From Acidobacteriota bacterium (GTDB lineage Bacteria; Acidobacteriota; UBA6911), in the NCBI GenBank assembly GCA_963664705.1, contig OY761556.1, positions 5,600,001 to 5,664,000 of the forward strand: a DNA stretch of 64,000 bases, given 5' to 3'. Below the pieces are notes generated by a model. That model did not search any database, had not been told where the DNA came from, and was given only the letters and a program-made list of their open reading frames with translations. Below, one piece after another: positions 10,850 through 33,067 of the stretch. Every line of letters starts with the position of its first letter. The stretch's first letter is position 1. The position numbers and the translations under genes are program-made.

Positions 10850-10886
10850 GGGGTTATTTCCTAGAAGGAACCGCAGGGAGGCCCCC
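10850..10886 (+). repeat. Cassette-boundary site A (degenerate)
   Basis: GGGGTTATTTCCTAGAA-GGAACC-GCAGGGAG; the left arm matches the family and the right arm is weak. Confidence 0.4.
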
Positions 10887-11005
10887 AGGTGAAGGAGATC
10901 CAAGAGATGTGCGCGAAAAGGGCGCTCCCGTCTTCGTCGCGGGTGCCGATCAGAAAGACCTGGCGGGTGAGGAAGCAGGCCGTTTCCGGCATAATGGGCT
11001 TCATC

Positions 11006-11431
11006 TTACAATTCCTCCACAGGCACGGTTGTATTGCTCAGACCGTGGTAATAATTGACCATCTCGGCTGTAAAGGCCAACACGCAGTAGTCTGGGTCGT
11101 CCACCCCTTTGGGATAATAAACCTCAAATCCCTCGCGCCAGAGCAGGGCCTTGGTCTCCCGGTCCGTGCGGACCTCCATGGTCCCTGTGAACAGCGCTCC
11201 CTTGAACTGCGGCCCGTCGCAGTAATAGACCGAGGCTTTTCGGTTTTTTAGAAACTGCTGCGCCCGCTTGGAACTGAGAGTTGTGGAAAAAAGCTGCGTG
11301 CGTGAGCTTTCATGTTCCAACACCAGCATGGCTTTGATCTGGGGGAAACCTTGCTCGTTAATGGATGCTACGTAGGCCACGGCGCTGCTTTCGCGCAACG
11401 CGCGGACTTCGGATGCAATCGCTTCATTCAT
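11006..11431 (-). CDS. Pyridoxamine 5'-phosphate oxidase-like FMN-binding protein
   Basis: ASINEQGFP, NRKASVYY and YYPKGVDDPDYCVL motifs; 4-nt overlap with the MarR gene. Confidence 0.85.
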   Translation of the reverse strand: MNEAIASEVRALRESSAVAYVASINEQGFPQIKAMLVLEHESSRTQLFSTTLSSKRAQQFLKNRKASVYYCDGPQFKGALFTGTMEVRTDRETKALLWREGFEVYYPKGVDDPDYCVLAFTAEMVNYYHGLSNTTVPVEEL

Positions 11432-11874
11432 TGCGTTTTTACCTTCCCTGTGAGGTTTTCAAGAATCCGGCGGAGCGCGCCCTCAAAGACCATGATCTCC
11501 GAATCCGTGAAGCCCTCGTAAAAGATGTTGTTCATTTGCCGGGATACGGCTTGGTAATCGTCCCTCAGCCCCCGCGCGTCTTGGGTCAGCCGGATCCGGA
11601 CCTTGCGGCGGTCGGTCGGATCCAGGATCCGCTCGATGTGGCCCGAGGCCTCCAGGCGGTCCAGCATGCTGGTCAAGGTCGTGGTGGCAAGGCCCGTCCG
11701 GTCCGAGAGGCTGCAGATAGGGATGCCGTCCTCCTCCCAAAGCACAAAGAGAATCCTTCCCTGCGCCCCGTTGAATTGGTCGATGCCGTGGGCGGCAAGG
11801 AGTTTTTCAAAGACCCGGCCTTGGATTTGCTTTATCTTGCTAATCAAAAAGCCGCCGTTCGTTTTTCTTTTCAA
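11428..11874 (-). CDS. MarR family regulator
   Basis: QGRILFVLW, TLTSMLDRLE and DPTDRR motifs; AGGAGG RBS. Confidence 0.9.
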   Translation of the reverse strand: MKRKTNGGFLISKIKQIQGRVFEKLLAAHGIDQFNGAQGRILFVLWEEDGIPICSLSDRTGLATTTLTSMLDRLEASGHIERILDPTDRRKVRIRLTQDARGLRDDYQAVSRQMNNIFYEGFTDSEIMVFEGALRRILENLTGKVKTQ

Positions 11875-12070
11875 ACCAAGCGCCTCCTCCTATATAGAAT
11901 AATACTATATGGTATTATAATAGTACATGGAATGCTTCTCACATGGTTTTTTGTTTGTAGGCGGAGTAGTGGCTGGTTGGTATCGACAGCTTGAAATCTC
12001 ATTGGCCAAGCTGAGGACCAAATAAAACATGTCAGCCTTAATGCCACCTTTGCTGATGGGAGAAATGCGA

Positions 12071-12119
12071 AATTGACATTTTGGCGTTATCTCCTCGAAG
12101 CCCGTTTTAAGACAATAAC
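12071..12119 (+). repeat. Cassette-boundary site B
   Basis: AATTGACATTTTGGC GTTATCTCCTCGAA GCCCGT TTTAAGACAATAAC. Confidence 0.8.
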
Positions 12120-12310
12120 TCATTTGAACCAACCTTAAGCTGCTCGAGTTACAAGAAACAGGCTATTCGCATATATATGCTAATAGCTGCCCTGGAAACG
12201 CAGATGGGCTTTGGTTTTCTCAACAGGTAACACGTTGGTAACAAATATTTGTTAACTTCTTATCCATTCGTTTTGTCCAGTTGCGCTTATTTGGAGTCGG
12301 AGGGCATCGT

Positions 12311-12793
12311 ATGAGAAAATTGATGTACCAAAAGAGCAATATGAAACTAAACATTTTCGTCTCTCTAATTATGCTGCTCGCTATTGTGAATTCTGGTATT
12401 GGAATTACATATTCTGCTCAATCATCATCCTCACCAACCTTGATTGGGCCTATAAAAGGAAAAGGGGGATATGAATTTTATTCTTGGCAGACGCAAGGAC
12501 GATGGAATTTTGCACTGCTATCTGCCACGAACATTCTAAAATCCGTGGAGCAAATCACGGTGTCGCCAGATACGGTAAGCGAAAACTATGTAAAACTGAG
12601 CGGTCAAGGCATTGAGGCCATCAAATCGCAGCTCAACCGGCTTCCCAGAAATGAGCATATTCTTTGGATTAGTAAACTGGCCCGAGTTCAATCTCTTGTT
12701 GATGCGGGGCCAATAGAAATGCCTTCGCAACCCATTATTGATGCGATTGCAGACCATTGCAAAAAGCTCGGTTTAGAGCTGAGTTTAGTGTGA
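12311..12793 (+). CDS. Hypothetical secreted protein
   Basis: Signal-like hydrophobic N-terminus; KGGYEFYSW motif; start codon uncertain (12311 or 12340). Confidence 0.7.
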   Translation: MRKLMYQKSNMKLNIFVSLIMLLAIVNSGIGITYSAQSSSSPTLIGPIKGKGGYEFYSWQTQGRWNFALLSATNILKSVEQITVSPDTVSENYVKLSGQGIEAIKSQLNRLPRNEHILWISKLARVQSLVDAGPIEMPSQPIIDAIADHCKKLGLELSLV

Positions 12794-12806
12794 GGAGGTC
12801 TTTAAT

Positions 12807-13232
12807 ATGAAGAAGATTCTGATTTGGTCAGCAATTGTTATCCTGCTGCTAATCCTGCCTTCGCTGGTTGGCAAGCTTCACCGTGCTAGCTATTCAGATA
12901 AACAACTTACGATCTTGTATCAGCACATCACTGCCAGGAATGTTAGATCAGCTAAAATCACTGGCGAATACCTGGAATGGGATGACCTTTCCGGGAACAA
13001 GTTCCAAACCACGATCCCTCCCGATAACGGCTATGAAATAGTTGAGAAGTTGAAGGACCATGGCGCAACCGTCAAATTTGTAAAATCCTCGGATATTTCG
13101 GGCTGGCCCATCATTCTAATTTCATGGCTGCCGCTGGTTTTAAACATAAGCATATTGGTTGCGCTTGTCTTTTTGATTATTTCGATTATTAAGTTAAGGC
13201 GTCAAACGGCTAATCCCTCGCAAAAACTGTAA
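12807..13232 (+). CDS. Stand-alone FtsH extracellular-domain-like membrane protein
   Basis: TM-periplasmic-TM layout with FQTTIP, EKLKDHG and LISWLP; no AAA domain; GAGGAGG RBS. Confidence 0.6.
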   Translation: MKKILIWSAIVILLLILPSLVGKLHRASYSDKQLTILYQHITARNVRSAKITGEYLEWDDLSGNKFQTTIPPDNGYEIVEKLKDHGATVKFVKSSDISGWPIILISWLPLVLNISILVALVFLIISIIKLRRQTANPSQKL

Positions 13233-13266
13233 TCCTATTTCTTTTAAGGTTAAACACTGGCGCGCG

Positions 13267-13300
13267 CGATTGTCCCGAAGTCCGATTCGGGGAAAGAATC
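13267..13300 (-). repeat. Cassette-boundary site C
   Basis: Minus strand: ATTCTTTCCCCGAA TCGGAC TTCGGGACAATCGC. Confidence 0.65.
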
Positions 13301-13365
13301 AGGAACTCATGCGAGCAGCAGTAGCGAGCCTCCGGGAGCACTGCACTCGTTGCCATGCGCCTGAA

Positions 13366-13869
13366 TCAGTTGACGAACGTAAGTTTTACCCTTTGCGACC
13401 GCAGGAAGTAGAATGTCCATATAGCACAGTGAATCGCGGTTCGTACCAGAGGGGAGGAATCGTAACCGCTGCCGGGATGGGCGGTAACAACGGCCACATT
13501 GTCGGATTGATTCAGGACTAACTTGGCAGCGTTTGATAGGAGTGGATGAAGACCGGCAGCTGCAACCATCACAACCAGCCATGCGATCATGATTTTGGGA
13601 AAAAGTTGTTTCTTTTTTACCAAGCAAAAAACGATTACCCCCTCAAGAATCAGTGGCACTGCGTTGAGCAAAAGCTCAGACGAGACAATGAACGCCAGTG
13701 AGTTTTGAAATCCATTGGAGCCCAAGCTGAAAGTTTCGCCTATGCCGCTATTCGAGAGAATATGGAAAATTGTATAAATTTGGTAAAAGGCGGAAATGGC
13801 AATCCATAGAACAGGAAAAATCAACCAGCCGCCAAATCCGCGAAGTTCCGATTGTCCTAAATCTTCCAT
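13366..13869 (-). CDS. DUF2569-like membrane protein
   Basis: GFGGWLIFP, KKKQLFP and IWTFYFLRSQRVKLTFV motifs. Confidence 0.8.
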   Translation of the reverse strand: MEDLGQSELRGFGGWLIFPVLWIAISAFYQIYTIFHILSNSGIGETFSLGSNGFQNSLAFIVSSELLLNAVPLILEGVIVFCLVKKKQLFPKIMIAWLVVMVAAAGLHPLLSNAAKLVLNQSDNVAVVTAHPGSGYDSSPLVRTAIHCAIWTFYFLRSQRVKLTFVN

Positions 13870-13988: not shown

Positions 13989-14024
13989 CTTATTTTCCCT
14001 AAGTCCGGATATGAGAAAGAACCC
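13989..14024 (-). repeat. Cassette-boundary site D
   Basis: Minus strand: GG GTTCTTTCTCATAT CCGGAC TTAGGGAAAATAAG. Confidence 0.6.
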
Positions 14025-14054
14025 TGTTCGGAAGGATATGAGGTTGCAATCTAT

Positions 14055-14486
14055 TTAAACAAAATGCTCAACTAGATATTTGCCGATAGCTGTATCGAGG
14101 TCTTCCATTGGCGTGTAAAACATTTTCCATAACCGATCGTCATCATCGTCCGGAATCTCGCCTTTGTTTTGTTTGAATAATTCTCTGGCTTCCGACAGCC
14201 CAAGATAGCAATTAACCTTCCCGAATAGGGTCAATCCCAGCCTTACCTGCTCATCAAATCGCTCATCTAGATTTGACAAATAATTCTTGAATCCGTCGCT
14301 GCCAATCATTCCCCATGCTTGATGTGCTGCGATGATTTCTTTCAGAGGCGATTCGAACTCAGCAAGACCGTCCAAAAGCGATTCCTTGCTGAATAATATT
14401 GTCTCATACCAGCCGAAAAATGCTTCAAGGGCCTCTTTGGGATTATCTTTAGAGGCAATAATGCGTTCTCGCAGTCGTGGCAGCAT
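14055..14486 (-). CDS. Hypothetical protein, DUF4375/DMP19-like
   Basis: Acidic helical protein with DGFKNYL and LWKMFY; GAGGGA RBS. Confidence 0.55.
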   Translation of the reverse strand: MLPRLRERIIASKDNPKEALEAFFGWYETILFSKESLLDGLAEFESPLKEIIAAHQAWGMIGSDGFKNYLSNLDERFDEQVRLGLTLFGKVNCYLGLSEARELFKQNKGEIPDDDDDRLWKMFYTPMEDLDTAIGKYLVEHFV

Positions 14487-14566: not shown

Positions 14567-14608
14567 GTTACTTTCCTGAAGTCGCATTCGCGGAGATAAC
14601 GCCAAATT
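14567..14608 (-). repeat. Cassette-boundary site E
   Basis: Minus strand: AATTTGGC GTTATCTCCGCGAA TGCGAC TTCAGGAAAGTAAC. Confidence 0.85.
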
Positions 14609-14802
14609 GTATATCTGCCACCATTAATGCTACATTCTACGCCAATCTACCCTTCTAGGATCGCCTTTTAATGGGAACTGGGCTAGATAATCGACCGTAT
14701 CATTAAGTATGAAATCATCTTCTTAGCGCTGGTAGGTGGACCCGGAGAAGTTGTTCGTCATAGCTCGTGGCTGACATACAATCTATCAAAAAGGAGCATA
14801 GA

Positions 14803-15555
14803 ATGCGCATCCGGTACCTGCTGCTTCTTGCTGCTCTCACGATCGCTCTTCAACACGGAATTACAAAAGACAAAATACTGAAGGAAAAGATTAACTCTGG
14901 CGATCGGGAGCGGAGCTATGTACTTTTCGTTCCAGAATCAATAGATCCAAACAAACCTGCACCTTTACTGATTACTTTGCACGGTTCCGGCCGCGATGGC
15001 TCGAGCCTGGTGGATCCTTGGAAGAAGCTGGCGAGAGAGAAGGGAATTATTCTTGCGGGTCCAAACGCATTGAGTTCTGGTGCCTGGATTACACCCACGG
15101 ACGGGCCCGTCTTCCTGCGGGATGTTGTCGATGCAGTGAAGGCCCGCTTCAGTATCGATTCAAAACGCGTGTACCTCTTCGGCCATTCCGGCGGAGGCGG
15201 TTTTGCAATCATTAATTCGATTTTAGAACCAAACTATTTTGCAGCCGCCGCAGTCCATGCTGGGGCTTTGCCGGTCCCAGAACAATTGGCTTCCTTCTTA
15301 CCGGCATCTCGAAGGGTCCCAATTTCAATTTGGGTGGGAGATCGCGATCCGTTCTTCCCCATGTCCGCCATGAAACCCACTGTGAATTTTCTACAGATCA
15401 ACGGATTTCCGGGGCAGTTTTCAGTATTGTTGAATCACGCCCACAATTACTACGGCATCGCAGATCGCGTGAACAAAGAGGCCTGGTTATTTCTTGAATC
15501 ACATGTCCTTGAAAATGAACCTGAATGGAACGAAATTCTTTTCAAAGAACGCTAA
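14803..15555 (+). CDS. Secreted alpha/beta hydrolase (PHB-depolymerase/esterase-like)
   Basis: LHGSG oxyanion motif, GHSGGG nucleophile elbow, GDRD and HAH. Confidence 0.85.
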   Translation: MRIRYLLLLAALTIALQHGITKDKILKEKINSGDRERSYVLFVPESIDPNKPAPLLITLHGSGRDGSSLVDPWKKLAREKGIILAGPNALSSGAWITPTDGPVFLRDVVDAVKARFSIDSKRVYLFGHSGGGGFAIINSILEPNYFAAAAVHAGALPVPEQLASFLPASRRVPISIWVGDRDPFFPMSAMKPTVNFLQINGFPGQFSVLLNHAHNYYGIADRVNKEAWLFLESHVLENEPEWNEILFKER

Positions 15556-15656: not shown

Positions 15657-15705
15657 GACGCTCCCATGATGTCGCGATCGGGGAAATTGTGCCAAAATGC
15701 TAATT
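15657..15705 (-). repeat. Cassette-boundary site F
   Basis: Minus strand: AATTAGCATTTTGGC ACAATTTCCCCGAT CGCGAC ATCATGGGAGCGTC. Confidence 0.7.
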
Positions 15706-15772
15706 TGCAGTCGTCCATGATGTGAGGAGGATGTTATAGTTGCGCGGTCCCACATCCCGCATGAGGAGTTCA

Positions 15773-16345
15773 ATGAAGAAATTATTTTTTATATTCTTTT
15801 TGTTCTCATCTTTGCCGGCAATTCTAGCCGCCCAAGAGGCACCCAAGTTTGAGGCATTCCTCGGTTATTCGCATTTCCGGATGCCAAGTGGATTTGATCT
15901 TGACGAGCTTTATCCAACCACAGAAGAAGCAAGGTTAAGTGGATTCGATATCACTATTACATGGAACATAAACCGATGGCTTGGTGCAGATGCCGATTTC
16001 GGGCATTATGATGGCAAGGTCAATTCAATGTTTGTAAAGACCGGTCGAATCAGCAGCCAAGACGCTTCAATCACCTCATATTTGTTTGGTCCCCGCGTGT
16101 TTTATCGCGTGAATCGATTTACTCCATTTGTCCATTCCTTATTCGGCGGTATGGCGTTAGGACGTGGACCGTACACTGGAAATGGGAGATCCGCAGCGGG
16201 TATTGCACTCGGGGGAGGCGTCGATATCAGCGTTGCCAGGCACTTTTCAGTTCGCGCAATTCAGGCTGATTACGTGAGAAGCGACTTTGTTCCAACGGGG
16301 CAAAATAATCTACGGTTATGCATTGGCGGAGTCCTTCGCTTCTGA
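15773..16345 (+). CDS. Outer-membrane beta-barrel protein
   Basis: Signal peptide; FLGYS, YLFGPR, PFVHSLFG and GGGVD; ends in Phe. Confidence 0.85.
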   Translation: MKKLFFIFFLFSSLPAILAAQEAPKFEAFLGYSHFRMPSGFDLDELYPTTEEARLSGFDITITWNINRWLGADADFGHYDGKVNSMFVKTGRISSQDASITSYLFGPRVFYRVNRFTPFVHSLFGGMALGRGPYTGNGRSAAGIALGGGVDISVARHFSVRAIQADYVRSDFVPTGQNNLRLCIGGVLRF

Positions 16346-16425: not shown

Positions 16426-16474
16426 GCCGTTGTCCTGAAATCAGCTTTGCCGAGATAGCGCCAAAATGGTAATT
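16426..16474 (-). repeat. Cassette-boundary site G
   Basis: Minus strand: AATTACCATTTTGGC GCTATCTCGGCAAA GCTGAT TTCAGGACAACGGC. Confidence 0.8.
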
Positions 16475-16525: not shown

Positions 16526-17290
16526 TCAATTTTCAGTTGGAATCCGCTTCGCATGATCGACGACTAGCATTTCAACCGGCGCTCTTCCAGGCTCCAGTTT
16601 CAACCCAAGCTGCTCCTGAATTGCGGTAAAAAGGCTCGGACCAGGTTGATTGCTGTCCTCTCCGTCTTCTGGAGTCCATTTCAGGCTGATGTCGAATGTC
16701 CCTGCCAATCCCGTGCGATCCACCACCTGGCATCCAGCAACGAACGACAAACTACCGGCAAGTGTTCCGATGAGCATGGACTTTCCAAATATTCCGCCGC
16801 GAAAGACCCTAACCGCCGGGCTTTCCCCGCGCACCTGTTCAGCCTCTTGGCCGCTATCCGTCTTTGGCACTTCCTTGAGCTTCGGCCCATTTTTTCCCAG
16901 CACCAGAAAGTACACTCGCTGCACTTTCATCTCTCGGTGGACCGACAGATTGAATCGTTCCGACAACAGTGCCCGCAACATGGCCGGAACTCGATCCTTC
17001 GGAGTGCCTGGAGGCAATTTTGCGGACAATCCATAGAATTGCTCATCCAGCCACTCGGGGCCACCCGTAACCAGGGGGCTGTCGAAGCCGTATGCGACAC
17101 TAATCAGGTTCTTGAGAGTGACGTTCGAATACCGCACCATGGCCGGATCGGAATCCATGGCGAAGAAAGCCGCGGTTCCCGTTTGCGGTTGGGCAAGCTT
17201 TACCGACGCTACTTCAAATGCCGCCGGTGCCTGCGGCCAGGCCGGAACAGATACGCAGCACAGAACGAGGGCGAGGACAATCTCTCTCAT
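16526..17290 (-). CDS. TIGR03435/DUF3738 family protein (Acidobacteria-expanded)
   Basis: AFEVASVK, GGPEWL, LLSERF, VVDRTGL, SLFTAIQEQLGLKLE and PTEN motifs. Confidence 0.92.
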   Translation of the reverse strand: MREIVLALVLCCVSVPAWPQAPAAFEVASVKLAQPQTGTAAFFAMDSDPAMVRYSNVTLKNLISVAYGFDSPLVTGGPEWLDEQFYGLSAKLPPGTPKDRVPAMLRALLSERFNLSVHREMKVQRVYFLVLGKNGPKLKEVPKTDSGQEAEQVRGESPAVRVFRGGIFGKSMLIGTLAGSLSFVAGCQVVDRTGLAGTFDISLKWTPEDGEDSNQPGPSLFTAIQEQLGLKLEPGRAPVEMLVVDHAKRIPTEN

Positions 17291-17373
17291 TGTTTCTACT
17301 CCTGCCGCTTTGGCTCCCAGAATACTCTATCCTACAGTTTCCTATTTTTATCAACAGAGTATCATCGGTCCTG

Positions 17374-17421
17374 GATTGTTCATGAAAAATCGCGTGCGAA
17401 GATAACTCCAGAATGGTAATT
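17374..17421 (-). repeat. Cassette-boundary site H
   Basis: Minus strand: AATTACCATTCTGGA GTTATCTTCGCACGCGATTTTTCATGAACAA. Confidence 0.7.
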
Positions 17422-17627
17422 GCCGTTTGGGGTCTTCTCACCGGTTGGATGCTCCTCTGATTGCGTTTCTCGAACCCGTGACGGATTACCCCCTTTATTT
17501 CATTTAAACACTCTCGAACTGCAACGAAGTCACATCCAACAAACTTTTTAGGAACTCACGAAAACATTGCTGTAATATGGGATCCTTTAAATGCGTAATG
17601 GACAGCCGAAATGAAAGGGATTTCTTA

Positions 17628-18008
17628 ATGGAATTTGCGTTAAGAGCTTTCATCCTTCTGGATGGCAAGATCAAGCGATTCGGAGTAAGCCGCTTGTCTC
17701 GGATTCACAACGATCTCATGCCTGAATATGCTGGGCTGAAAATTCCATATGCGATTCTTGTGTTCGAACGTGAAGAAGGAAAACTTGGAGATCTGCGTTA
17801 CCACGAATGCGGGTACCTTGTCTTTGACAATGAGGGAAAGTTGGATGAGAGCAAGGGGCTAAATCATCTCCGGTTGGTTCAGGCTGGCGAAAACGATCCC
17901 AAATCATTTGCCGCCAGGAGAGCGGAACAGGTCCGGCGGGAAAATACATGGTATGCCAGCGGCGACCAACTGAGTCAAATGATCGCACAAGCCAAACAAA
18001 GGAAATAG
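17628..18008 (+). CDS. Hypothetical 126-aa protein, paralog of 36915-37295
   Basis: Ungapped alignment to 36915-37295 sharing PEYAGxKIPYA, DLRY, GYLVFD and QMIA. Confidence 0.8.
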   Translation: MEFALRAFILLDGKIKRFGVSRLSRIHNDLMPEYAGLKIPYAILVFEREEGKLGDLRYHECGYLVFDNEGKLDESKGLNHLRLVQAGENDPKSFAARRAEQVRRENTWYASGDQLSQMIAQAKQRK

Positions 18009-18113: not shown

Positions 18114-18148
18114 AATTACCATTTTGGCGTTATCTCCGCGAACGCGAC
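18114..18148 (+). repeat. Cassette-boundary site I, left part (right arm at 21585-21598)
   Basis: AATTACCATTTTGGC GTTATCTCCGCGAA CGCGAC | element | TTCCTGGGACCTTG. Confidence 0.85.
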
Positions 18149-18173
18149 ATAACCGGCCAATCGCTGCCCGTTT

Positions 18174-19310
18174 TTAGGCTCTGCGGAGTTTGCCCGCCTC
18201 TTTGATTATCTTGGTAAGGCGATTGGAGAGTCGGTTGAGGCATTTGCGTTCAACACCAATCGGCAGTCCGCGCCGAAACATCTCCATTGCACGTTGAGTG
18301 GCGTGCAATGAATCGATTACCCCATCTAAACCAGTTCGAATGGGATCTGACGGTCTCGGTTGAGGAACCAGGTGTCGGGGTTTTGAATGAGCCAGTTGAA
18401 ACTCTCTCTGAAGGTCTTTCAACGCCACTTCGATATAGAGCATTGTCATGTCCGGAGAAGTGTGGCCGAGTAATTTCATCAGTACAGGAAAACTGACGCC
18501 GGAGCGAAGCATCTCTGTGGCATAGGTGTGGCGAAACTGGTGTGGAACAATGCGAGTGGAGATTTCGAGAGAGTAACAAACTTCATGCAGATAATCGCGA
18601 AGTTGACGAACGAGAGCATACTTGGTGCTAGGCCGTGCAAGCAGTCGACCGTCAGGAGGACACGGATCTAGAAAACGAAAGAATCGCAAGCGTTGGATAA
18701 TCGCGACTATCGACGAATCCACCGGGACCATCCGTTCTGTTTTGAGTTTACCAAGTGGTACGTGAATGGCCCACTGGCGGAGACCGGTCGAGCGGAGGCA
18801 ATCGACGGGCAAATCGGCGCACTCGCCAATGCGCATGCCGGTATGGCGGAGGAGCAGAAAGACATTCGATCCCAGATCGTTGCGCTTGAGGAACTCCTTC
18901 TGCAGAAGCTGATCCTGTTCGGCGGTGAGCGGACGTGCAAGTCTGTGCGGGCGGCGAGGGATATCTTCACGACGAATCAAGCGGGCGACTTGAGGAAGCT
19001 GTTTGGTCCACGCCAGTTCTATGAACAGAGGGCGTAAAGCGATGAGCTTACCGATATAGGTGGATGTGGCGAGCGGAGGCGTCTGGGCGCGCAAGTGGGA
19101 CATCCAGCCGAGGAGGTGTGGCTCCCGCCGCAGTTGTTCGAGAGAATTCACCTCGGGGAAATGGGCGCCCAGATAAGTAAGGAAGTTGCGTACGGTCCCG
19201 CGATACTGGACCTGGCTTGCTGAGCCGAGCGCAATACAGAGCGAATCGACCGCGCGATCAAAGACATCAACCAGTGGATGTGAGAGGGGAGGACGCCAGG
19301 AGCGTTTCAT
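18174..19310 (-). CDS. Tyrosine recombinase B (copy 1)
   Basis: GMRIGE, GKLK, PHQFRH, LLGH and MLY give a complete R-K-H-R-H-Y set; helical C-terminal extension. Confidence 0.92.
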   Translation of the reverse strand: MKRSWRPPLSHPLVDVFDRAVDSLCIALGSASQVQYRGTVRNFLTYLGAHFPEVNSLEQLRREPHLLGWMSHLRAQTPPLATSTYIGKLIALRPLFIELAWTKQLPQVARLIRREDIPRRPHRLARPLTAEQDQLLQKEFLKRNDLGSNVFLLLRHTGMRIGECADLPVDCLRSTGLRQWAIHVPLGKLKTERMVPVDSSIVAIIQRLRFFRFLDPCPPDGRLLARPSTKYALVRQLRDYLHEVCYSLEISTRIVPHQFRHTYATEMLRSGVSFPVLMKLLGHTSPDMTMLYIEVALKDLQREFQLAHSKPRHLVPQPRPSDPIRTGLDGVIDSLHATQRAMEMFRRGLPIGVERKCLNRLSNRLTKIIKEAGKLRRA

Positions 19311-20353: not shown

Positions 20354-20390
20354 AGCAGAGCCAAGCTCCAGAAAAGAATGTGTATCAGAG

Positions 20391-20708
20391 TCAGGCAGCA
20401 GGAAGTTCAAGTACCTGGTAGACTCCATCTTTGAATGCGATCAGATCTCGCGCCAGGAGTTCATTACGGGCGCCGGTAAGTTCGTGGCGGTGATGAATCT
20501 CGAGGAGTTCCTCCATACGTTCGTCGGAGTAAAAACTCACACCATCTCGATTAGCAACTGAGACCAAGACCAAGTAGAGAAGCTTTTCCAAGCGGGTTAG
20601 TCCCTGATCGAAACCCTGCCGAAAAAAGCGATGGTCAATCCAACTGAAAGAACCGCTGATGGCGCGGAGTCGGTCCGGCTGTAGCGGTTGAGGTCGTTTG
20701 TTCATCAT
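20391..20708 (-). CDS. Small winged-helix/replication-initiator-like protein (copy 1)
   Basis: FSWIDHRF, LLYLVL, GVSFYSD and YQVLEL motifs. Confidence 0.7.
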   Translation of the reverse strand: MMNKRPQPLQPDRLRAISGSFSWIDHRFFRQGFDQGLTRLEKLLYLVLVSVANRDGVSFYSDERMEELLEIHHRHELTGARNELLARDLIAFKDGVYQVLELPAA

Positions 20709-20787
20709 GCTTTCCCCATTTTGTACATGCCGAAATTAACGAAGCTATATGGGATGAATCAATATGTCGGGACTAAATCTAACAAGC

Positions 20788-22485: not shown

Positions 22486-22510
22486 ATAACCGGCCAATCG
22501 CTGCCCGTTT

Positions 22511-24690: not shown

Positions 24691-24727
24691 AGCAGAGCCA
24701 AGCTCCAGAAAAGAATGTGTATCAGAG

Positions 24728-25045
24728 TCAGGCAGCAGGAAGTTCAAGTACCTGGTAGACTCCATCTTTGAATGCGATCAGATCTCGCGCCAGGAGTTCA
24801 TTACGGGCGCCGGTAAGTTCGTGGCGGTGATGAATCTCGAGGAGTTCCTCCATACGTTCGTCGGAGTAAAAACTCACACCATCTCGATTAGCAACTGAGA
24901 CCAAGACCAAGTAGAGAAGCTTTTCCAAGCGGGTTAGTCCCTGATCGAAACCCTGCCGAAAAAAGCGATGGTCAATCCAACTGAAAGAACCGCTGATGGC
25001 GCGGAGTCGGTCCGGCTGTAGCGGTTGAGGTCGTTTGTTCATCAT
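24728..25045 (-). CDS. Small winged-helix/replication-initiator-like protein (copy 2)
   Basis: Identical to 20391-20708. Confidence 0.7.
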   Translation of the reverse strand: MMNKRPQPLQPDRLRAISGSFSWIDHRFFRQGFDQGLTRLEKLLYLVLVSVANRDGVSFYSDERMEELLEIHHRHELTGARNELLARDLIAFKDGVYQVLELPAA

Positions 25046-25124
25046 GCTTTCCCCATTTTGTACATGCCGAAATTAACGAAGCTATATGGGATGAATCAAT
25101 ATGTCGGGACTAAATCTAACAAGC

Positions 25125-25628
25125 TCATCGGCGGCTGCGGTGACGCTCCGACCAACGCCTCTCTCGCTCCCAAACTCGTTCGAGAGCGCGGCGACATGCA
25201 TAGGAACAGAAGCGTTGCAGGGGCGACCGCCGGCTGCGGTGGAATTCTTGGTATCAACCAGGGCGATCGCAGGAACACGAAAATAAGTTTCTTATAATGA
25301 CCCTCGCTTCGGGGGCCGGGCCCTTGTTTTGTTGCGTGCGCTCCTTTTGCCGCACTCTGTATCTGTGGCTTTGAACGCGGCGAACCTGCTTTCCACCATC
25401 AGTTTTGCGGTACTTTTGCCGGGCTTTCCACTCTCTCCATTTTCCCGCCTCATTGCGGCAATGCTCGCTACAATAGCGTGCTCGGGGGTGTTCCGGCCGG
25501 AATATGCGACCGCAGTCTTTCAGCAAACACGCACGGGCGCGCGGCCATCTAGCTTTTCGCCTGGTATGGGGTCTTGTTCCTTTTGCTTGATTTTGAAGGA
25601 GAATTATCGGATGTTCACGAGGGCCCAT
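25125..25628 (-). CDS. Double Zn-finger protein with an in-frame TGA at 25254-25256 (copy 2)
   Basis: Identical to 20788-21291, including the TGA. Confidence 0.65.
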
Positions 25629-26008
25629 GGGAGTTGCCTCTCCCAGAAGCTCAAGCCTCGAGGGGGACCCATTCCCCTTCGGGGCACACTGAGCACAATT
25701 GGATGCAATATCCTTAACCCTGCTCTTAGATTAGGATCGGAAATAAAACCGGCGAGATTACTCGAAAATCAAATTCGATTTGCCGAGTAGTTGTTGTTGC
25801 GAAGCACCGTGAAAAAAAGCAGAAGTATAAGGGAAAAGCTATATTTATACTGCTTCACAACTTGAAGAATTACCGAAAGACTTTATAGACCAATTTTAAA
25901 CATTGGCCGGTTATTTTGGACATATTGGGATTTACTCCATTTATAAATTGGAAGGTGTGGGATCATGAAGCTGTAGTATAAAAGTATAATTCAGCACTTT
26001 GGTGAATC

Positions 26009-26878
26009 ATGAACTGGCCAGCCCGAATCACTCTCGGGATTTTGGGAGTCGTCCTTCTTTCCGTGTCATACCTCTGTATCCGCCATTACACTCGTGAGGA
26101 CAACTCGATCAGCACTTCGATCCATCTCGAACCAGTTGTTCGCAATTCCCCCAATTTCCCCACGGTGCATTCGGGTGTAGATCAATTACCACAAGAAAGA
26201 AAATCGTTATCAGCGACAATCCCCTTTGGACGTTCAAATCCAAATTCGGGAGATCTGTCTAATGCCACTGCTGCGGAAAGAACAGTTCGTGTTGCCCTTC
26301 AGATGATTGAAGAGGGTGATTACAAAAAGGCCCGAGATTTGCTCCTGACGAGAATCATGGCTACGCCTCGCGGTAGCAATTATCTCAGGTACGGTAAGCC
26401 AGATCGTGTATCCATGCGAAAGGAAATTACGCTCACTGGAAAGGATCAGGTCCAGTTCGAAAATTGGGTTTACGAAAATGGCCGAGGCAGGATCTCGCGT
26501 GAGCTTGAGTTTATGGCTAACCCAGCAGACCGACAGACAGAAGAACAAGGGGCGTCCGAATTGTGGGCCCTCGGCTACAGCTTTTATAGTGAAGGAGGGG
26601 TCGAAAACGAGAAAAAAGGCAAAAATATTTTTGAGGATTTCCTCGTAATTTTTGCAAATGGTCCTGAAGATTTGGTTCAAGCAGCTCAAATTGATATTGC
26701 CGTTATTGACATTAAGCTAATGCATTCTGCTTCTACTCTTGGATACAGGATTGCAGCAGCTTCTGAGGCAGTAGAAGTGCTTAAGAAATTTATATTGAAA
26801 TGGCCAAATCACCCTAGAGCCAATGACGCGGGTATTTCACTAAAAATTGCGCAGGAATTTTTGCTTAATCCTAGGTAG
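26009..26878 (+). CDS. Membrane-anchored TPR-like protein containing a GWxTD-domain-like segment
   Basis: N-terminal TM; EEGDYKKARDLL and FILKWPNHPRA (BamD/TPR-like); YLRYGKPDRV...FENWVY insert. Confidence 0.6.
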   Translation: MNWPARITLGILGVVLLSVSYLCIRHYTREDNSISTSIHLEPVVRNSPNFPTVHSGVDQLPQERKSLSATIPFGRSNPNSGDLSNATAAERTVRVALQMIEEGDYKKARDLLLTRIMATPRGSNYLRYGKPDRVSMRKEITLTGKDQVQFENWVYENGRGRISRELEFMANPADRQTEEQGASELWALGYSFYSEGGVENEKKGKNIFEDFLVIFANGPEDLVQAAQIDIAVIDIKLMHSASTLGYRIAAASEAVEVLKKFILKWPNHPRANDAGISLKIAQEFLLNPR

Positions 26879-26945: not shown

Positions 26946-26994
26946 ACTTTGCATTATGGCGTTATCTCCGCGAAGCCGACATCAAAGGAGTATC
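26946..26994 (+). repeat. Cassette-boundary site K
   Basis: ACTTTGCATTATGGC GTTATCTCCGCGAA GCCGAC ATCAAAGGAGTATC. Confidence 0.8.
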
Positions 26995-27085: not shown

Positions 27086-27463
27086 ATGAAATTTTCAGAT
27101 ATCTGCATCATTACCGAAGACGTCTCAAGACTTGCTCGGTTCTATGAATCCGTTTTCCAGACAAAGGCTGAGGGAGACGCCATTCATTCATCCCTATTAA
27201 CTGAGGGAGCAAGCATCGCTTTCTATTCAAAGAAGGCGGCTGAGACCGATATGTGTTTTGATTTCTCACAATTTTGGGGGTCAGGTAATTACACACTCGG
27301 ATACAACGTAGGTGATGTAGATCAAGAGTATGAGCGCCTGAAATCGCTAAAGATCGATTTTGTAACGATCCCTACAACTTGGCCTTGGGGTGCCAGGTCC
27401 GTGCATTTCAGAGATCCAGATGGGAACATTATCTGCTTTAGAAGCTTCCCGAAACAAAACTGA
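27086..27463 (+). CDS. VOC/glyoxalase family protein
   Basis: DVSRLARFY, VGDVDQEYERL and PWGARSVHFRDPDGN motifs. Confidence 0.92.
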   Translation: MKFSDICIITEDVSRLARFYESVFQTKAEGDAIHSSLLTEGASIAFYSKKAAETDMCFDFSQFWGSGNYTLGYNVGDVDQEYERLKSLKIDFVTIPTTWPWGARSVHFRDPDGNIICFRSFPKQN

Positions 27464-27480: not shown

Positions 27481-27529
27481 CATTGTATATAAGGCGCTAT
27501 TTCCTACAATGAGACTACAGGAAAACAAC
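27481..27529 (+). repeat. Cassette-boundary site L
   Basis: CATTGTATATAAGGC GCTATTTCCTACAA TGAGAC TACAGGAAAACAAC. Confidence 0.7.
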
Positions 27530-27564
27530 GATTTGCGGCAGAGTGATTGTGCTGAAACAATGCC

Positions 27565-28344
27565 TCATTTCTCTGGCCAAGATATTTTAATGACATTGGA
27601 CTGCAAACCGCCGAATTCGAACTGACATTTGTGTTCTCCTGATGAGATATTTTCAGTGTAATCAAACGGAGAAAGAAAGAATGCCCAGGATTTTCCTGGC
27701 CTAAGGCCTGGAACCCCGTCCCATGAAACTCCATTTCTCTTATACCGCTGGCCGTCCAGATAGAAAACGGAGGTGAACAATAGATCTGGCATGCTAACGA
27801 CTTCTTTATTGTCATTTCTAAAGTGGCCAGCAATTTTTATGTCTTTGGCTGATATGGTTTTGAGAGGGATACTCTCGATTTCGAATGGAGAACTTACCAA
27901 TCGGCCTTGAGGAGCCTGGACCTGAAAATATACAATGTTGGATTTGATACTGCCATTAACTATCCATTCGGCTCGGTAATTCCCTTTTTTGAGCTTTTTT
28001 GAAAAAAATGTGAATGCAGAGTAAGTACCCATTCGACTCTTGACCTGGACGGGTCGCGATTCTGAAATGTAGAATGCGTTGTCCTGAGAAAAGATAACAT
28101 GTCCTTTGGGGTCTTCCACTTTAACATTCGAATTTGCCAGCTCCACATCTTCTTCATGTCTGTTAATAATCAAACCACCGAATCCGATTTCATCAGTAGT
28201 CCGATAGAGTTTAGAATCGGTTATAAGATATAAAATCGGCTGACCACTTTCATCTTGACCGCTTATAAATCCAGAACTGAGGATTGTCAATGCGATTGGA
28301 ATTGCGGACAGACAAGGAATGGCAAATATTAATCTGCGTATCAT
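27565..28344 (-). CDS. Hypothetical secreted protein with two Ig-like beta domains
   Basis: Signal-like N-terminus; two modules ending G.Y...SNIVYF and G.H...SNVIKI. Confidence 0.65.
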   Translation of the reverse strand: MIRRLIFAIPCLSAIPIALTILSSGFISGQDESGQPILYLITDSKLYRTTDEIGFGGLIINRHEEDVELANSNVKVEDPKGHVIFSQDNAFYISESRPVQVKSRMGTYSAFTFFSKKLKKGNYRAEWIVNGSIKSNIVYFQVQAPQGRLVSSPFEIESIPLKTISAKDIKIAGHFRNDNKEVVSMPDLLFTSVFYLDGQRYKRNGVSWDGVPGLRPGKSWAFFLSPFDYTENISSGEHKCQFEFGGLQSNVIKISWPEK

Positions 28345-28740
28345 CGGGCACCTTCAGTTGTAGGCTATTGGATATATGCTCCTGGTAATTATACTCTGAT
28401 CATTGAGCATACTAACTCCCGAATTATTTGATGCTGTTTGTATCAGAATTTCGTGGATATAGCCCCCAAGTCCCAAGATACGGCCATCCTGGAATGTCAC
28501 CGAACACTGAAAAGCGGCCAGGAAAGAACACTTGAAAACCGGCCACTCCGATAGCGGAGAGTCAGTATCGAATAGATCCCCTCAAAGAATCAAGACAATC
28601 GAAAATTAAGCCAGCAGGGCCTGTGGGAAATGTGGGAAAGCCGCAGGCTTTTCCAAGTCTCCGTGGGAATCCGCGCTTTCCAGCGGATTTCCATGGAGAC
28701 GGCATTTTCCATAGGCCACAACGTGATGTCGACTGGACTT

Positions 28741-29493
28741 TCATGCGTCCTCCCCGGCAGCGCGACCAGCGCGTTGGTGAAGACGAAAACTCTTTCCCTG
28801 CATCTGAATGACTTCAGCATGAGCCAGGAAGCGGTCGAGAATGGCTGTGGCCGCCGGGATGTCGCCGAGGAACTGGCCCCAATCCTGAGTGGGCCGATTT
28901 GTTGTAATCAGCGTCGATGTTCTTTCGTGACGGCGCACGAAAATCTCCAATAAATCCTCCGCGCCACTGGGACCGAGCTTCTTCATGCCGAAGTCTTCGA
29001 GGATCAGAAGATCGACTCGCGTGAGTTGATCGACAAGCAAGCGCCGTTCGCCGGTGGCTTCCGCTTCCGCAAAATCCTGAGCCAGGTCGAAGACGCTCCG
29101 AACAAGGGCTCTATGCCCCGCACGAATGGCCCCGACGGCGATAGCGATTGCGATATGGGTTTTGCCGATGCCGGGCGGTCCAATCAGCAGGACGCCCTGA
29201 TGTGAGGCAATGAAGCGAGCTGTGGCCAAATCAACGAGCTTTGCGCGAGGAATCTTGGAGTTAAAAGAGAAATCAAAATCAGAAAGCTCCTTGATCTGGA
29301 CAATGCCGGCCTGTTTGAGACGGCGAGCGAAGAGGCGGTCCGAGCGCCGAGCAAGCTCGTCCGAGACGAGGAGTTCGAGAAACTCCATGTAATCCAGAGG
29401 GGCGCTACGGGCTTGTTCAAGGCGACCAGGCAGCGCTTGAACAATGCCGGAAAGACGGAGATGCCGGAGCTGTGACAGCAGTTGCGGGTTCAT
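28741..29493 (-). CDS. istB: IS21 helper ATPase
   Basis: GPPGIGKT, LLILEDFG, TTNR, AILDR and GKSFR motifs. Confidence 0.95.
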   Translation of the reverse strand: MNPQLLSQLRHLRLSGIVQALPGRLEQARSAPLDYMEFLELLVSDELARRSDRLFARRLKQAGIVQIKELSDFDFSFNSKIPRAKLVDLATARFIASHQGVLLIGPPGIGKTHIAIAIAVGAIRAGHRALVRSVFDLAQDFAEAEATGERRLLVDQLTRVDLLILEDFGMKKLGPSGAEDLLEIFVRRHERTSTLITTNRPTQDWGQFLGDIPAATAILDRFLAHAEVIQMQGKSFRLHQRAGRAAGEDA

Positions 29494-31064
29494 AAAAAAT
29501 CCTCCAGGCGATAATCGGTTAAGGGACGAATGATGGGATGTTCGGAAAGAAGAGTTTGGACTGGCGATTTTGCCGCCTGTTGTTCAGTTAGCCGCTGCAG
29601 ATCCTTATAGCGAAACAATCGGTTGACGGTGGCCGTCCGGGCAGCCGCCAACACACGTTCGCGGGGATGCTGACGCGTCAAACCGAGGACGCCCTGAATC
29701 AGCCGTAGAGCCCGCACGCCTCGTTCTTCGATGGCTGCTTCGGCCCATTCGCGCAGTGCCGTTCCGACACGTTCGCAACGGGCGAGCAACTGGGCTGCAA
29801 AAGCCTTCTGCGAGGAAGGTGCCACCCCCGGTTCACCGGAACGGGGAGCAAACTGGCCCGGTCGCAAGCGTGTATAGACGGCGACTTGGGTTTCGTCGTG
29901 ATACAGGCGCACGAGGTTGCGATCCCAACGCACCCGGATCTTTTGTCCCAGAAGATGTAACGGTGCCGGATAAAAAGCTCCGTCGACTTCGACATGCCCA
30001 TCGGGGTGAATGGTGCGTTGCCCGGTGCGGAAGAAAGCAAACGGCTCTGTAGCGAGCGGTTGCAATGCTGCTTTCTCCGCCTCAAGAAAATGGGTAAAGA
30101 CCTGACGGCGGGTGGTGCCGTGAATCCGCAAGCGAGCGATGGTTCTATTCCAGCGCCGGAGATGCTCGTTCTGCTCGGCGAGGCTATTGAAGCGGCGACC
30201 TTTGAGAGCGTTATCTTTGACATAACCACCGCTGCGTTCCTGCTTGCCGTTCTCCTGGGGATTGCGCGGACGGGTAGGCAAAGGCGTGAAGCCCCAGTGC
30301 GTGGCAAAGGCTGCATAGATCACGTTAACGTCCGGATCATAGAGGCATGCCCGGACAACTGCTGCCTTCAGATTGTCATGCCTAATAACCTTCGGAACGC
30401 CGCCCAGATCGGTAAAGGCGTTTTCGTGCAGGCGAAGAAAGGTCTCGAGGCTTTGATCCCAGACAGCTTCTTCATAACCGTGCCGGGAGTGACACAAAGT
30501 CAAACGGAACACCCATGGACGTTTCCATTGACCGCTTGTCTCATCAAGCGTGGGAACTCCCTGGAAAAAATCAACCTGGCCTTCTTCACCAGGCGCGCTA
30601 TGAAATACCCCGACTGCGCGACGAGCCCGGGGCAGTTTCCGGATGAAACGTTTGACAGCTTCGTAGCTGTATCCGAATCCGTAGTCCTCGCCCAGATCCT
30701 GCCAGATGCGCTGAACAGACAAACCGGCGTCCAGCTTGGAGACGATCACATCGCGATAGCGGGCTGCCGAAGATCGTGGTGGGGGATCGGACCCGGCGAA
30801 CACTTTGGCCGGATTTGAATCCGAGCCGGCGGTCACTTTGGCCGGTTTTGGCGGATCGGATCCCTCAAACTCGTTGGTTTCAGTGACTGCAGGCTCCCCA
30901 GAGCCGGGGAACACTTTGGCCGCTTTTGCTTTCTGCAGGCGATCGTATCGGGAGATGGTTTCTCGCCGGACTCCCGTTTCAGCTTCTATGCGCCGGTATG
31001 TCCAACCGAGTTCAAGAAGAGCAGTAACTTGTTGCAGCTTTGGCGTTTTCAAGTAGTTCGGCAC
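29490..31064 (-). CDS. istA: IS21 DDE transposase
   Basis: PGEEGQVDF, GGVP...DNLKAAV, ENGKQE and RIHGTT motifs. Confidence 0.95.
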   Translation of the reverse strand: MPNYLKTPKLQQVTALLELGWTYRRIEAETGVRRETISRYDRLQKAKAAKVFPGSGEPAVTETNEFEGSDPPKPAKVTAGSDSNPAKVFAGSDPPPRSSAARYRDVIVSKLDAGLSVQRIWQDLGEDYGFGYSYEAVKRFIRKLPRARRAVGVFHSAPGEEGQVDFFQGVPTLDETSGQWKRPWVFRLTLCHSRHGYEEAVWDQSLETFLRLHENAFTDLGGVPKVIRHDNLKAAVVRACLYDPDVNVIYAAFATHWGFTPLPTRPRNPQENGKQERSGGYVKDNALKGRRFNSLAEQNEHLRRWNRTIARLRIHGTTRRQVFTHFLEAEKAALQPLATEPFAFFRTGQRTIHPDGHVEVDGAFYPAPLHLLGQKIRVRWDRNLVRLYHDETQVAVYTRLRPGQFAPRSGEPGVAPSSQKAFAAQLLARCERVGTALREWAEAAIEERGVRALRLIQGVLGLTRQHPRERVLAAARTATVNRLFRYKDLQRLTEQQAAKSPVQTLLSEHPIIRPLTDYRLEDFL

Positions 31065-31232
31065 CTATATCCTCCGTCGTCGAAACGACAGAGAATAGCG
31101 GAAAGCCGCTACCTGGAGTGGCCGGTTTTCAAACGTTCGGTCGTGGCCGCTTTTGGGTGTTCGCTAACACCTGGAAATTGAGATCGACGTAGAATGTAGT
31201 ATTGTGGGTGGGATTGATCCTGAAAAACCCAA

Positions 31233-31784
31233 CTAATTCTTAGTCAGCAGCATTTTCCGATTGCGTGCATTCACACGAAAACGAAAAAGGAATGCGCCGA
31301 CAATAAATAGCGTGCAAAAAGGAATGCTGATAAGTGTTGTGTGCATGGCCTGCCTCAGCGACAGACCCCCAACCACCCAAATGCAGAATACAAAAACCAA
31401 GGCAATTGCTGAAGGAAATTCATGATCGTGAGAACGGGTTGCCACATGCCAGCCGATAAAAGCGGGGAGAATATAGCCCAAAATATGAAACAAAATATTT
31501 CCTAAATGAGTATGCTCTGCAAAATACAGTTTATTACAATACGCAAATAGGCATGCCATGACGAACAATTCCAAGAATCCTGAGAGGCCAAGCCATATCA
31601 TCCTAAGCCAATGAACCTGCAAATCGCGGCATATCAGGGATACAAAGATCCGCAACAATCCGCACCAAAACCAAAAAGGGCTTCTGTTCGAGGTTTCCTC
31701 CAGCAAATCGCCTATGATTGAGGCTGCGCGACTGGACGTAGTGATCGTTTCTAAGATTCGCTCGGCTATGGTTAGCTTAAGCAT
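31233..31784 (-). CDS. Membrane protein with permease-prefix-like N-terminus, coupled to PadR
   Basis: AERIL...IIGDLLEE...WFW, then 4 TM segments; 8-nt overlap with padR. Confidence 0.7.
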   Translation of the reverse strand: MLKLTIAERILETITTSSRAASIIGDLLEETSNRSPFWFWCGLLRIFVSLICRDLQVHWLRMIWLGLSGFLELFVMACLFAYCNKLYFAEHTHLGNILFHILGYILPAFIGWHVATRSHDHEFPSAIALVFVFCIWVVGGLSLRQAMHTTLISIPFCTLFIVGAFLFRFRVNARNRKMLLTKN

Positions 31785-32112
31785 GTGAAACTCCCGGTAA
31801 TTTCAATCCTTTCAGTAATCGCTGAAAACTGCGCTGTGCGGCGGTAACGGCCTTTAAGCCTGTCGGGGTAACCATAAAATACCGTTTCGAGCGTCCGCCT
31901 CTCTGAGGTGTTGGATCTCCTGTTCGGGATTCGACTAGGCCTTTTTCCTCAAGTCGGTCTAGAGTGGTATATAGAGCGCCGGGAGCAGGTCTTCTGCCAG
32001 TACAAAGTGCTATTTCCGAGTTGATCGATACTCCGTACGCATTATCTTCCAGCCGTAATATTGCCAACAAAACGATTTGTTCAAACTCTCCCAGGGACGC
32101 ATATGGAACCAT
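31777..32112 (-). CDS. PadR family regulator (acidobacterial type)
   Basis: LGEFEQIVLLA, AYGV, GALYTTLDRLE and RGGRSKRYF motifs. Confidence 0.92.
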   Translation of the reverse strand: MVPYASLGEFEQIVLLAILRLEDNAYGVSINSEIALCTGRRPAPGALYTTLDRLEEKGLVESRTGDPTPQRGGRSKRYFMVTPTGLKAVTAAQRSFQRLLKGLKLPGVSHA

Positions 32113-32156
32113 GTCTACATTGTATGACATATCATGAATAAAAACCATAAAAGACC

Positions 32157-32193
32157 ATAAATCCTAAGAAACGGGCTTGTAGGAAACTATCCC
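32157..32193 (-). repeat. Cassette-boundary site N
   Basis: Minus strand: GGG ATAGTTTCCTACAA GCCCGT TTCTTAGGATTTAT; same spacer as site B. Confidence 0.55.
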
Positions 32194-32251
32194 GTGCCGT
32201 GGCAAACTGGTAAAGGGTATTTGAGTGAAGCCGCTATTATTGGGAGATCCG

Positions 32252-33067
32252 ATGAATAATTCTTATGTCCATGGATATGATTTCAGGGAAGGCATACGCC
32301 TGCAAGATCAGGCATCCACATTGATTGAACTCCTGCACTCTGACACTGCCTATTCTGCAGGAAGCCGTGTGCTTGAGGCTGGCTGCGGTGTGGGCGCACA
32401 GACCATCACTCTGGCGAAAAACAGTCCTGGTGCGATCTTTACGTCAATCGATATTTCGCAAGCTTCATTGGCGGCTGCAAGACAAAGGATCATGGATACG
32501 GATATTTCGAACGTGCATTTTCAGCAGGCTGATCTCTTCAACCTGGAATTTCCGCCCGAGTCTTTTGATCATGTGTTCGTCTGTTTTGTGCTGGAACATT
32601 TGTCCCGGCCAATTGCGGCACTCAAGGCTCTGAAAGGAGTTCTAAAGCCGGGGGGCACGATCGTGTCAATTGAAGGTGATCACGGATCAGCCTTCTTCTA
32701 CCCGCAGAGTGAAGCGGCGCAAGCTGCAATACGATGCCAGGTTGAGCTGCAGAAACGTGGCGGCGGCAACGCTTTAATTGGGAGAGAGCTCTACCCGCTG
32801 CTGTATGCAGCCGGTTTTCAAGAGGTTAGTATCTCTCCTCGGATGGTTTATGTTGATTCAAGCAAACCCAAGCTTGTCGATGGCTTCACGCGGAAAACCT
32901 TTACTGCAATGATAGAAGGAGTGCGCGAGCCCGCGATATTGGCCGGCATGATCAATCCACAGCTTTTTGATGCCGGAATAAGGGATCTCCATAGGACGAC
33001 GGAATCTGATGGGGTGTTCTGCTACACGTTCTTTAAGGCCTGTGGCATAAGGGCTATCCGCCAATAG
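32252..33067 (+). CDS. Class I SAM-dependent methyltransferase
   Basis: VLEAGCGVG, SFDHVF and LKPGG motifs. Confidence 0.92.
   Translation: MNNSYVHGYDFREGIRLQDQASTLIELLHSDTAYSAGSRVLEAGCGVGAQTITLAKNSPGAIFTSIDISQASLAAARQRIMDTDISNVHFQQADLFNLEFPPESFDHVFVCFVLEHLSRPIAALKALKGVLKPGGTIVSIEGDHGSAFFYPQSEAAQAAIRCQVELQKRGGGNALIGRELYPLLYAAGFQEVSISPRMVYVDSSKPKLVDGFTRKTFTAMIEGVREPAILAGMINPQLFDAGIRDLHRTTESDGVFCYTFFKACGIRAIRQ

Follow-up and report, generated by a model that had tools for sequence, protein, structure and literature searches.

The window analysed here comprises 64,000 nucleotides (positions 5600001-5664000) of the 6.89-Mb single-contig genome of a member of the Acidobacteriota, an abundant, mostly uncultured soil phylum. 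A TIGR03435 gene and the named relatives of the window's recombinases also indicate this phylum. The window contains a row of unrelated genes punctuated by copies of one two-armed site. When the site is read on its own strand, a 15-bp extension, present in some copies only, precedes a left arm of 14 bp; three variable bases and a triplet make up the spacer, and a right arm of 14 bp completes the site. The two-armed core (arm, 6-bp spacer, arm) measures 34 bp. We observe the sites, their one-per-gap spacing, their polarity, one-sided breaks of homology at the triplet, and two unrelated recombinase-coding elements inserted at this same triplet. The region belongs to a genuine system of cassette arrays, which has a site of its own in two classes and is neither an integron nor a set of dif modules, to our knowledge the two described recombinase-built cassette systems of bacteria.

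The array starts to the right of a serine resolvase/invertase gene (10085-10645), the only full one in the genome. Its first feature is a half site on the plus strand (10838..10886; model E 0.029), a left arm with neither triplet nor right arm. A MarR and PNPOx gene pair (11006..11874, minus), which has a 91% copy in another array at 5.87 Mb, separates it from a site with the triplet CGT and the extension (12071..12119, plus), facing a run of sites with the triplet GAC on its right. Two genes without assigned function follow (12281..13232, plus), and then the sites of the first run, all on the minus strand: a GAC site without extension in a convergent gap (13266..13314), another without extension (13989..14037), two GAC sites with extension (14567..14615 and 15657..15705), a site with extension and the triplet GAT in a convergent gap (16426..16474; arms 10.2 and extension 23.3 bits), and a damaged site (17373..17421; model E 0.35) that has kept its extension (13.1 bits) and has its left arm out of register (arms -0.7 bits). 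The cargo between them encodes, in order, a DUF2569 protein (13366..13869, minus), a protein with a weak DMP19-like match (14055..14486, minus), an alpha/beta hydrolase or esterase (14767..15555, plus), an outer-membrane beta-barrel (15740..16345, plus) and a TIGR03435/DUF3738 protein (16526..17290, minus). A cargo gene with no assigned function (17577..18008, plus) lies between this run and the next, to which it stands back to back.

The second run is on the plus strand, and two of its GAC sites are split by copies of a two-recombinase transposon. Extension, left arm and spacer of the first split site occupy 18114..18148, with GAC at 18146-18148. Copy 1 of the transposon (18149..21581, minus), with 13-bp terminal inverted repeats at 18149 and 21577 plus four fixed bases, carries recombinase B (18174-19310), recombinase A (19307-20428) and two open reading frames (ORFs; 20391-20708 and 20917-21291), and is followed by a repeated GAC and the right arm (21582..21598). 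Beyond a gene for a secreted protein with a carboxypeptidase-regulatory-like domain (21690..22430, plus), the left part of the second split site (22451..22485), copy 2 (22486..25918, minus; 99.7% identical to copy 1) and again a repeated GAC with the right arm (25919..25935) repeat the arrangement. Misassembly of the tandem copies was rejected as an explanation, since independent contigs span 11767-18154, 21555-22512 and 25892-29300. Cargo without assigned function (26009..26878, plus), a GAC site with extension (26946..26994), a glyoxalase/VOC gene (27086..27463, plus), a GAC site in a convergent gap (27481..27529) and a gene with a weak MG2-domain match (27565..28344, minus) lead to an IS21-family element with istA, istB and inverted ends (28495..31169, minus), a later intruder without a site. 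A PadR pair (31233..32148, minus) and a CGT site on the minus strand (32157..32205), facing the GAC run on its left, close the array. The methyltransferase gene beyond the last site (32225..33067, plus) has an 85% copy without a site at 4.459 Mb of the genome.

Conjugation genes (VirB4-like, TrbL, TrbI, a secretion ATPase, a TrwC relaxase and a coupling protein) cluster at 42579-61946, with radC, ardC and a RecD2 helicase gene nearby, and are probably an integrated conjugative element. A preliminary description of this DNA had placed the array next to such an element; the cluster is present, but the association looks incidental because the surroundings of the other arrays gave no conjugation gene call. 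A defence island just left of the window holds type I restriction genes, a dCMP deaminase-like gene, E2/ThiF/JAB genes and TIR genes. The resolvase was considered as the cause of the mirror layout and discarded, as no convincing inverted repeat was found between the two borders. Rfam and tRNA scans of the window gave no matches.

An arms-only matrix gives 19.6-34.8 bits for the sites at 12071, 13267, 13989, 14567, 15657, 26946, 27481 and 32157. In the window, 6 matches were counted against 0.68 expected, and in a second count 6 against 0.15; in the whole genome 36 matches exceed 20 bits, including the 8 training sites (leave-one-out scores 8-46 bits), against 0-1 in three shuffled versions. 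The observation of a repeated site is confirmed. Eleven of the 13 sites first listed are sound, the one at 17374 being damaged and the one at 10850 a left arm only. None of the 15 site or half-site positions in the window overlaps a gene. The gaps flanking the IS21 element have no site (a candidate at 28463 scores only -2.9). The right arm proved more variable than its consensus was first written. The accessory 15-bp motif is real, but only 42 of 66 aligned GAC sites possess it; these 66 sites were selected for GAC, so that their invariant triplet is by construction, and they show 16 different first triplets. We tried to read the extension as a back-to-back CGT site and gave this up, since ACG occurs at the expected place in only 3 of 54. 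A subset of cassettes, for example at the window site near 14600, has a longer common end of ~55 bp with a TAGAAT-like stretch upstream of the extension. In three sites of one array (5884037, 5887805 and 5894146) the same five spacer bases are missing, perhaps as repair scars.

The spacer NNNGAC describes most sites; those at 12071 and 32157 represent a second class with CGT instead. Orientation is mixed as well: the site at 12071 is on the plus strand, 13267-17374 on the minus strand, 18114-27481 on the plus strand and 32157 on the minus strand. The window thus has two back-to-back runs, and a CGT site closes each of them. A scan that gave the triplet no weight (threshold 14 bits) recovered 37 GAC and 8 CGT among 50 matches above 14 bits in the arrays, and 48 matches outside arrays show no triplet bias. 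Neighbouring GAC and CGT sites face in opposite directions in 13 of 13 cases in this genome and 6 of 6 in relatives (19/19), and adjacent GAC sites agree in direction in 26 of 28 and 25 of 28 cases, respectively. In the relative G138 the matrix matched GAC sites only. Replication direction was dismissed as the cause of this polarity, as arrays on the two replichores do not differ in direction.

The motif also occurs beyond the window. Five arrays (2.91-2.94, 5.02-5.03, the window, 5.87-5.90 and 6.71-6.72 Mb) and one single site occur in the genome. A strict pattern matches 10 of 29 genus relatives but none of 107 other genomes of the class, and a profile of 66 sites has matches in 35 of 50 family genomes (training sites from 11 genomes; 117 candidates scored per genome). 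Regions of relatives contain 50 sites against 0.2 expected, mostly in same-direction runs. Over the five arrays, 6 of 59 spacers fall inside a crudely called ORF, compared with 74% coding bases. The 38 same-direction units hold one ORF in 20 cases, two in 7 and none in 3, and cargo genes are oriented with the array in 40 cases and against it in 36. Phage-type integrases near two arrays (6708214 and 1332458) lie within satellite-like islands.

That the units behave as cassettes is indicated by the flanks of the sites. Among 6216 pairs of 113 sites compared over 80-bp flanks, 18 have flanking sequence in common, which is the upstream flank alone in 5, the downstream flank alone in 12 and both flanks in 1. 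The last is the identical overlap of two contigs of one assembly, and 10 of the 12 downstream-only pairs are transposon copies. Where the common sequence is cargo, it is one-sided in 7 of 7 pairs and breaks at the site, at the triplet; pairs sharing a flank at a junction have only the triplet in common within the spacer. In the relative G014, one 1-kb unit is present in two arrays at 83% identity, extending from GAC to the next GAC. In the window itself, the 77 bp from the GAC at 21582 onward match the beginning of a unit located at 2935564 in the genome. The predicted coincidence of breakpoints with spacers, and the recurrence of site-to-site units in other contexts, are both supported by these cases.

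The recombinases A (373 aa) and B (378 aa) retain all tyrosine-recombinase catalytic motifs. They do not form an integrase of the array; they are encoded by a transposon that uses the sites as insertion targets and was found in only 2 of 29 genus relatives. The element is 3.43 kb long, with 13-bp inverted ends and four fixed bases. All four copies in the genome lie directly after the GAC of a site, with another GAC and then the right arm on their far side. A miniature non-coding copy (genome ~2937470-2937749), which has kept the two inverted ends and shows the CGT repeated, lies within a CGT site. From 315 matches in relatives we kept 78 loci, 49 of them with both ends, and the 3-bp triplet is repeated at the ends in 48 of the 49. 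The targets are two-armed sites with a lineage-specific consensus, and further copies of them lie nearby (59 matches against 7.6 expected, some counted on both strands). Most relatives have a primase gene where the window element has its two small ORFs, which have no Pfam match above the cut-off. The best plasmid matches of A are actinobacterial recombinases (32-43% identity). The assembly of G014, in 10 contigs, has 36 sites, and the A+B pair was not found in it. At Acidobacteriaceae loci, two subfamilies of the transposon insert at opposite sides of one lineage-specific site family.

A second element, designated Int-IS91, consists in relatives of a 288-aa integrase gene followed by an IS91 transposase gene. 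The integrase scores 181 bits against TIGR02249, and the accessible text of two sources (10.1101/542381; PMC8138268) identifies recombinases linked to IS91 as the closest homologues of IntI. Close copies of the element start at GAC in 5 of 5 cases, with a scoring left arm before it in 4 of 5. The 44 distinct start junctions have CGT in 16 cases, GAC in 15 and other triplets in 13, and the start motif is absent at 15 of 30 family loci. At the far end lies a hairpin, the first half of which is complementary to the start of the element itself; a circular strand would therefore fold into a full site with a bulge of 4-5 bases, which we take to resemble the attP of CTX. Hairpin stem and triplet change together between subfamilies, and folding of the linear end gives z -2.2 on one strand and -0.9 on the other. 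Sites occur in 21 of 24 family genomes with the integrase against 14 of 26 without it (p 0.014, kin not being independent). The genome studied here has fragments of the element only, one of them inside a CGT site. Aromatoleum and rhizobial plasmids carry an integrase and an IS91 transposase, as annotated; on such plasmids, of which seven loci were read by eye, the integrase-IS91 element abuts palindromic or dif-like sites, and recombinase trios adjoin it in three records.

We propose that the window holds two back-to-back rows of cassettes with borders at a fixed triplet, and that these are likely moved in trans by element-supplied tyrosine recombinases through a predicted exchange of one strand at that triplet. 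We assign this reading a probability of slightly under 0.6. A cassette would comprise the triplet and right arm, the gene or genes, and the left arm with three free bases, and recombination between two head-to-tail sites would release a circle or take one in. Exchange would be limited to the strand that is cut next to the right arm, replication completing the product; this would explain why the other three spacer bases vary freely and stay with the left flank. A full tyrosine-recombinase reaction requires matching spacers, as described for pdif sites in the accessible part of PMC13141974, and the accessible part of PMC9345347 describes integron and CTX integration as relying on a tyrosine recombinase plus replication. 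The sharing of only three bases beside the right arm is consistent with the exchange of a single strand and its completion by replication, the route of integron cassettes and CTX. The second triplet would prevent opposite-facing sites from inverting the DNA between them. The enzymes of the elements may move the cargo in trans, the likeliest family-wide driver being the IntI-related integrase of the IS91-type element, which as a circular single strand is predicted to fold into a complete site; here the intact candidates would be the A+B pair, Int-IS91 being present as fragments.

Several observations weigh against this proposal. Neither enzyme accompanies every array, since there is no intact Int-IS91 integrase in this genome and no A+B pair was found in 27 of 29 genus relatives; likewise, 14 site-bearing genomes have no integrase match, and genome-level associations are confounded by kinship and assembly quality. 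The insertion of an element shows that its enzyme uses the site, not that the enzyme moves cargo. Direct evidence of swapping within the window is one 77-bp junction. Homology of the MarR/PNPOx pair with the 5.87-Mb array ends 120-185 bp short of the sites, a 110-bp non-coding stretch (15543-15652) matches three loci of two relatives at 81-83% without starting at a site, and the cargo at 25930-28500 has no match in 50 relatives. Contigs from the same sample contained neither a cargo circle nor a site excision joint, although contigs drop rare forms. The first acquisition of both arms by a gene is not accounted for.

A different owner of the sites is conceivable. Host XerC might bind the left arm, either by itself or together with an element enzyme that takes the role of XerD, and the arrays, though real, would then be an offshoot of Xer-exploiting elements and dif modules; we consider this unlikely. 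By hand counting, which applies to all our dif-arm comparisons, the left arms agree with the XerC arm of the host dif (at 2036985) at a mean of 5.9 of 11 positions against a background of 2.75, and XerC, present in 50 of 51 genomes, is always available. The right arms, however, match the XerD arm (4.9/11) no better than the reversed XerC arm (4.8/11), and the exchange point adjoins the right arm, not the XerC-like left one. The left arm of the Int-IS91 hairpin matches the host XerC arm by eye at 9 of 11 positions in this genus and in G138, but at only 6 of 11 in G139. A related element on an Aromatoleum plasmid lies, again by eye, in a site with a TTATG right arm, and a similar XerC arm belongs to the Solibacter dif given in the accessible part of PMC3025954. 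Against these resemblances, the XerC arm is nearly constant across the Acidobacteriota checked while the target consensus differs by lineage, site arms were not seen to co-vary with the host dif (cross-lineage controls score as well as own-host comparisons), and the arrays keep one direction on both replichores. As a separate observation, G138 and G142 have repeats of an identical dif-like 28-mer, perhaps an element end, at places other than the chromosomal dif.

We find it improbable that the sites belong to a dedicated recombinase without linkage to the arrays and that both elements are only parasites. A candidate is the 195-aa, catalytic-domain-only tyrosine recombinase at 6325759, which has 7 matches, 6 of them at 78-94% identity across two genera, in 6 of 50 relatives; by a hand tally, all six belong to the 13 genomes with at least 13 sites, and both elements exist in GAC and CGT versions with common left-arm subtypes, as if adapted to a pre-existing system. 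This recombinase was nevertheless not found in 7 of the 13 site-rich genomes, 20-contig assemblies among them. No array site lies in the 16 kb around its gene in this genome, and in relatives single site matches occur kilobases away at 4 of 7 loci and at none of the gene ends. The recombinase gene (7759-8346 of its locus) sits beside defence-type, BREX-like genes. Similarly little probability attaches to the idea that the sites are preferred targets and leftovers of selfish recombinase elements, with the intervening genes as by-products and no working cassette traffic. Both elements do insert at sites, their remnants lie in sites, and some cargo moved without site borders; yet a whole cargo unit bounded by sites is found in two places, 7 of 7 cargo pairs break at the site, the two classes keep strict polarity, and the arms are conserved where no element lies inside. 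That the motif is an operator for a transcription factor is extremely unlikely: it is intergenic and roughly palindromic, but three window sites occupy convergent gaps (13266, 16426 and 27481), indifferent to gene direction, and sites cluster in islands and are split by insertions. This explanation is contradicted because the sites mark homology breaks.

The proposed cassette rows likely represent an undescribed gene-cassette system. No description of these arrays was found in full-text searches of the literature, subscription papers and bioRxiv supplements being outside their scope, so that an earlier mention is possible; the accessible text of a review of Acidobacteria mobile elements (PMC3469429) and of a preprint on IS1202 (10.1101/2022.12.17.520857) does not describe the sites. 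The arrays fall outside integrons and dif modules by the tests that define these, yet they show cassette swapping, and searches for attC and intI would miss them throughout the family. Tentatively, they might be a third bacterial cassette system, whose attI-like sites are plain double-stranded DNA and fall into two triplet classes that do not cross. These sites would be a common currency in Acidobacteriota; the sister enzyme of IntI linked to IS91 would run the system, and a second transposon family would exploit it as well. Such a system would be a living stage of integron evolution before attC and the resident integrase. With the closest known relative of IntI as the candidate enzyme, a 34-bp site and a 288-aa protein offer a way to test how integron cassettes and single-strand recombination arose. 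A recombinase requiring just three common bases could also serve as a tool.

The proposal of a tyrosine-recombinase-type platform with its own site and with neither attC nor intI is supported by comparison with integrons. The best TIGR02249 score in the genome is 87.6 bits against a cut-off of 265, the site consensus does not contain the RYYYAAC...GTTRRRY layout by which the preliminary description defined attC, and the window sites do not fold (z -1.29 to +1.44; 11 sites on one strand, 3 of these on both). Integrons and the arrays have in common direct repeats of a site that mostly enclose single genes, a crossover point fixed at one triplet, a predicted exchange of one strand finished by replication, and a candidate enzyme from the integron-like recombinase subgroup, as delimited in the accessible part of 10.1101/542381. 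In contrast to integrons, array genes are not co-oriented (40 same, 36 opposite), a second, opposite-facing site class is present, and a genome has several arrays with no adjoining integrase.

The likeness to dif and pdif sites, suggested earlier, is limited to the spacing and one arm; there is no XerD arm, and the sites are direct repeats with non-identical spacers. The XerC/XerD modules of Acinetobacter plasmids, according to the accessible part of PMC13141974, likewise have arm-6 bp-arm sites around small gene modules, and one arm of the array sites resembles the XerC arm. The accessible text of 10.1101/2022.12.17.520857 describes pdif sites as targets of IS1202-type elements, and the array sites are similarly targeted by other elements. 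Unlike pdif sites, which alternate, neighbouring GAC sites face the same way in 51 of 56 cases; the array sites lack an XerD arm, share three spacer bases instead of five or six, and are chromosomal, whereas pdif modules are on plasmids.

Among the mobile elements, the A+B transposon resembles the Tn554 family and actinobacterial Tn554-like pairs, as far as these are covered by the accessible text of PMC3414803 and 10.1101/2021.05.26.445724, in its two adjacent tyrosine recombinases and its site-specific insertion. No TnpC was recognised in it. It differs in that A and B are both ~375 aa with no long partner, in its 13-bp terminal inverted repeats, in targeting intergenic array sites (4/4 copies) rather than the radC target given there, and in the genes upstream of A+B, two small ORFs here and a primase in most relatives. 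RIT elements have three recombinase genes in a row, unlike the two of each A+B copy. No literature was found on insertion of IS91-type elements at such sites or on a link between them and cassette arrays. Int-IS91 shares with ISAzo26-type IS91 elements, which have an upstream recombinase, the combination of integrase and IS91 transposase, and, unlike the CTX-like elements that exploit Xer, it encodes its own recombinase.

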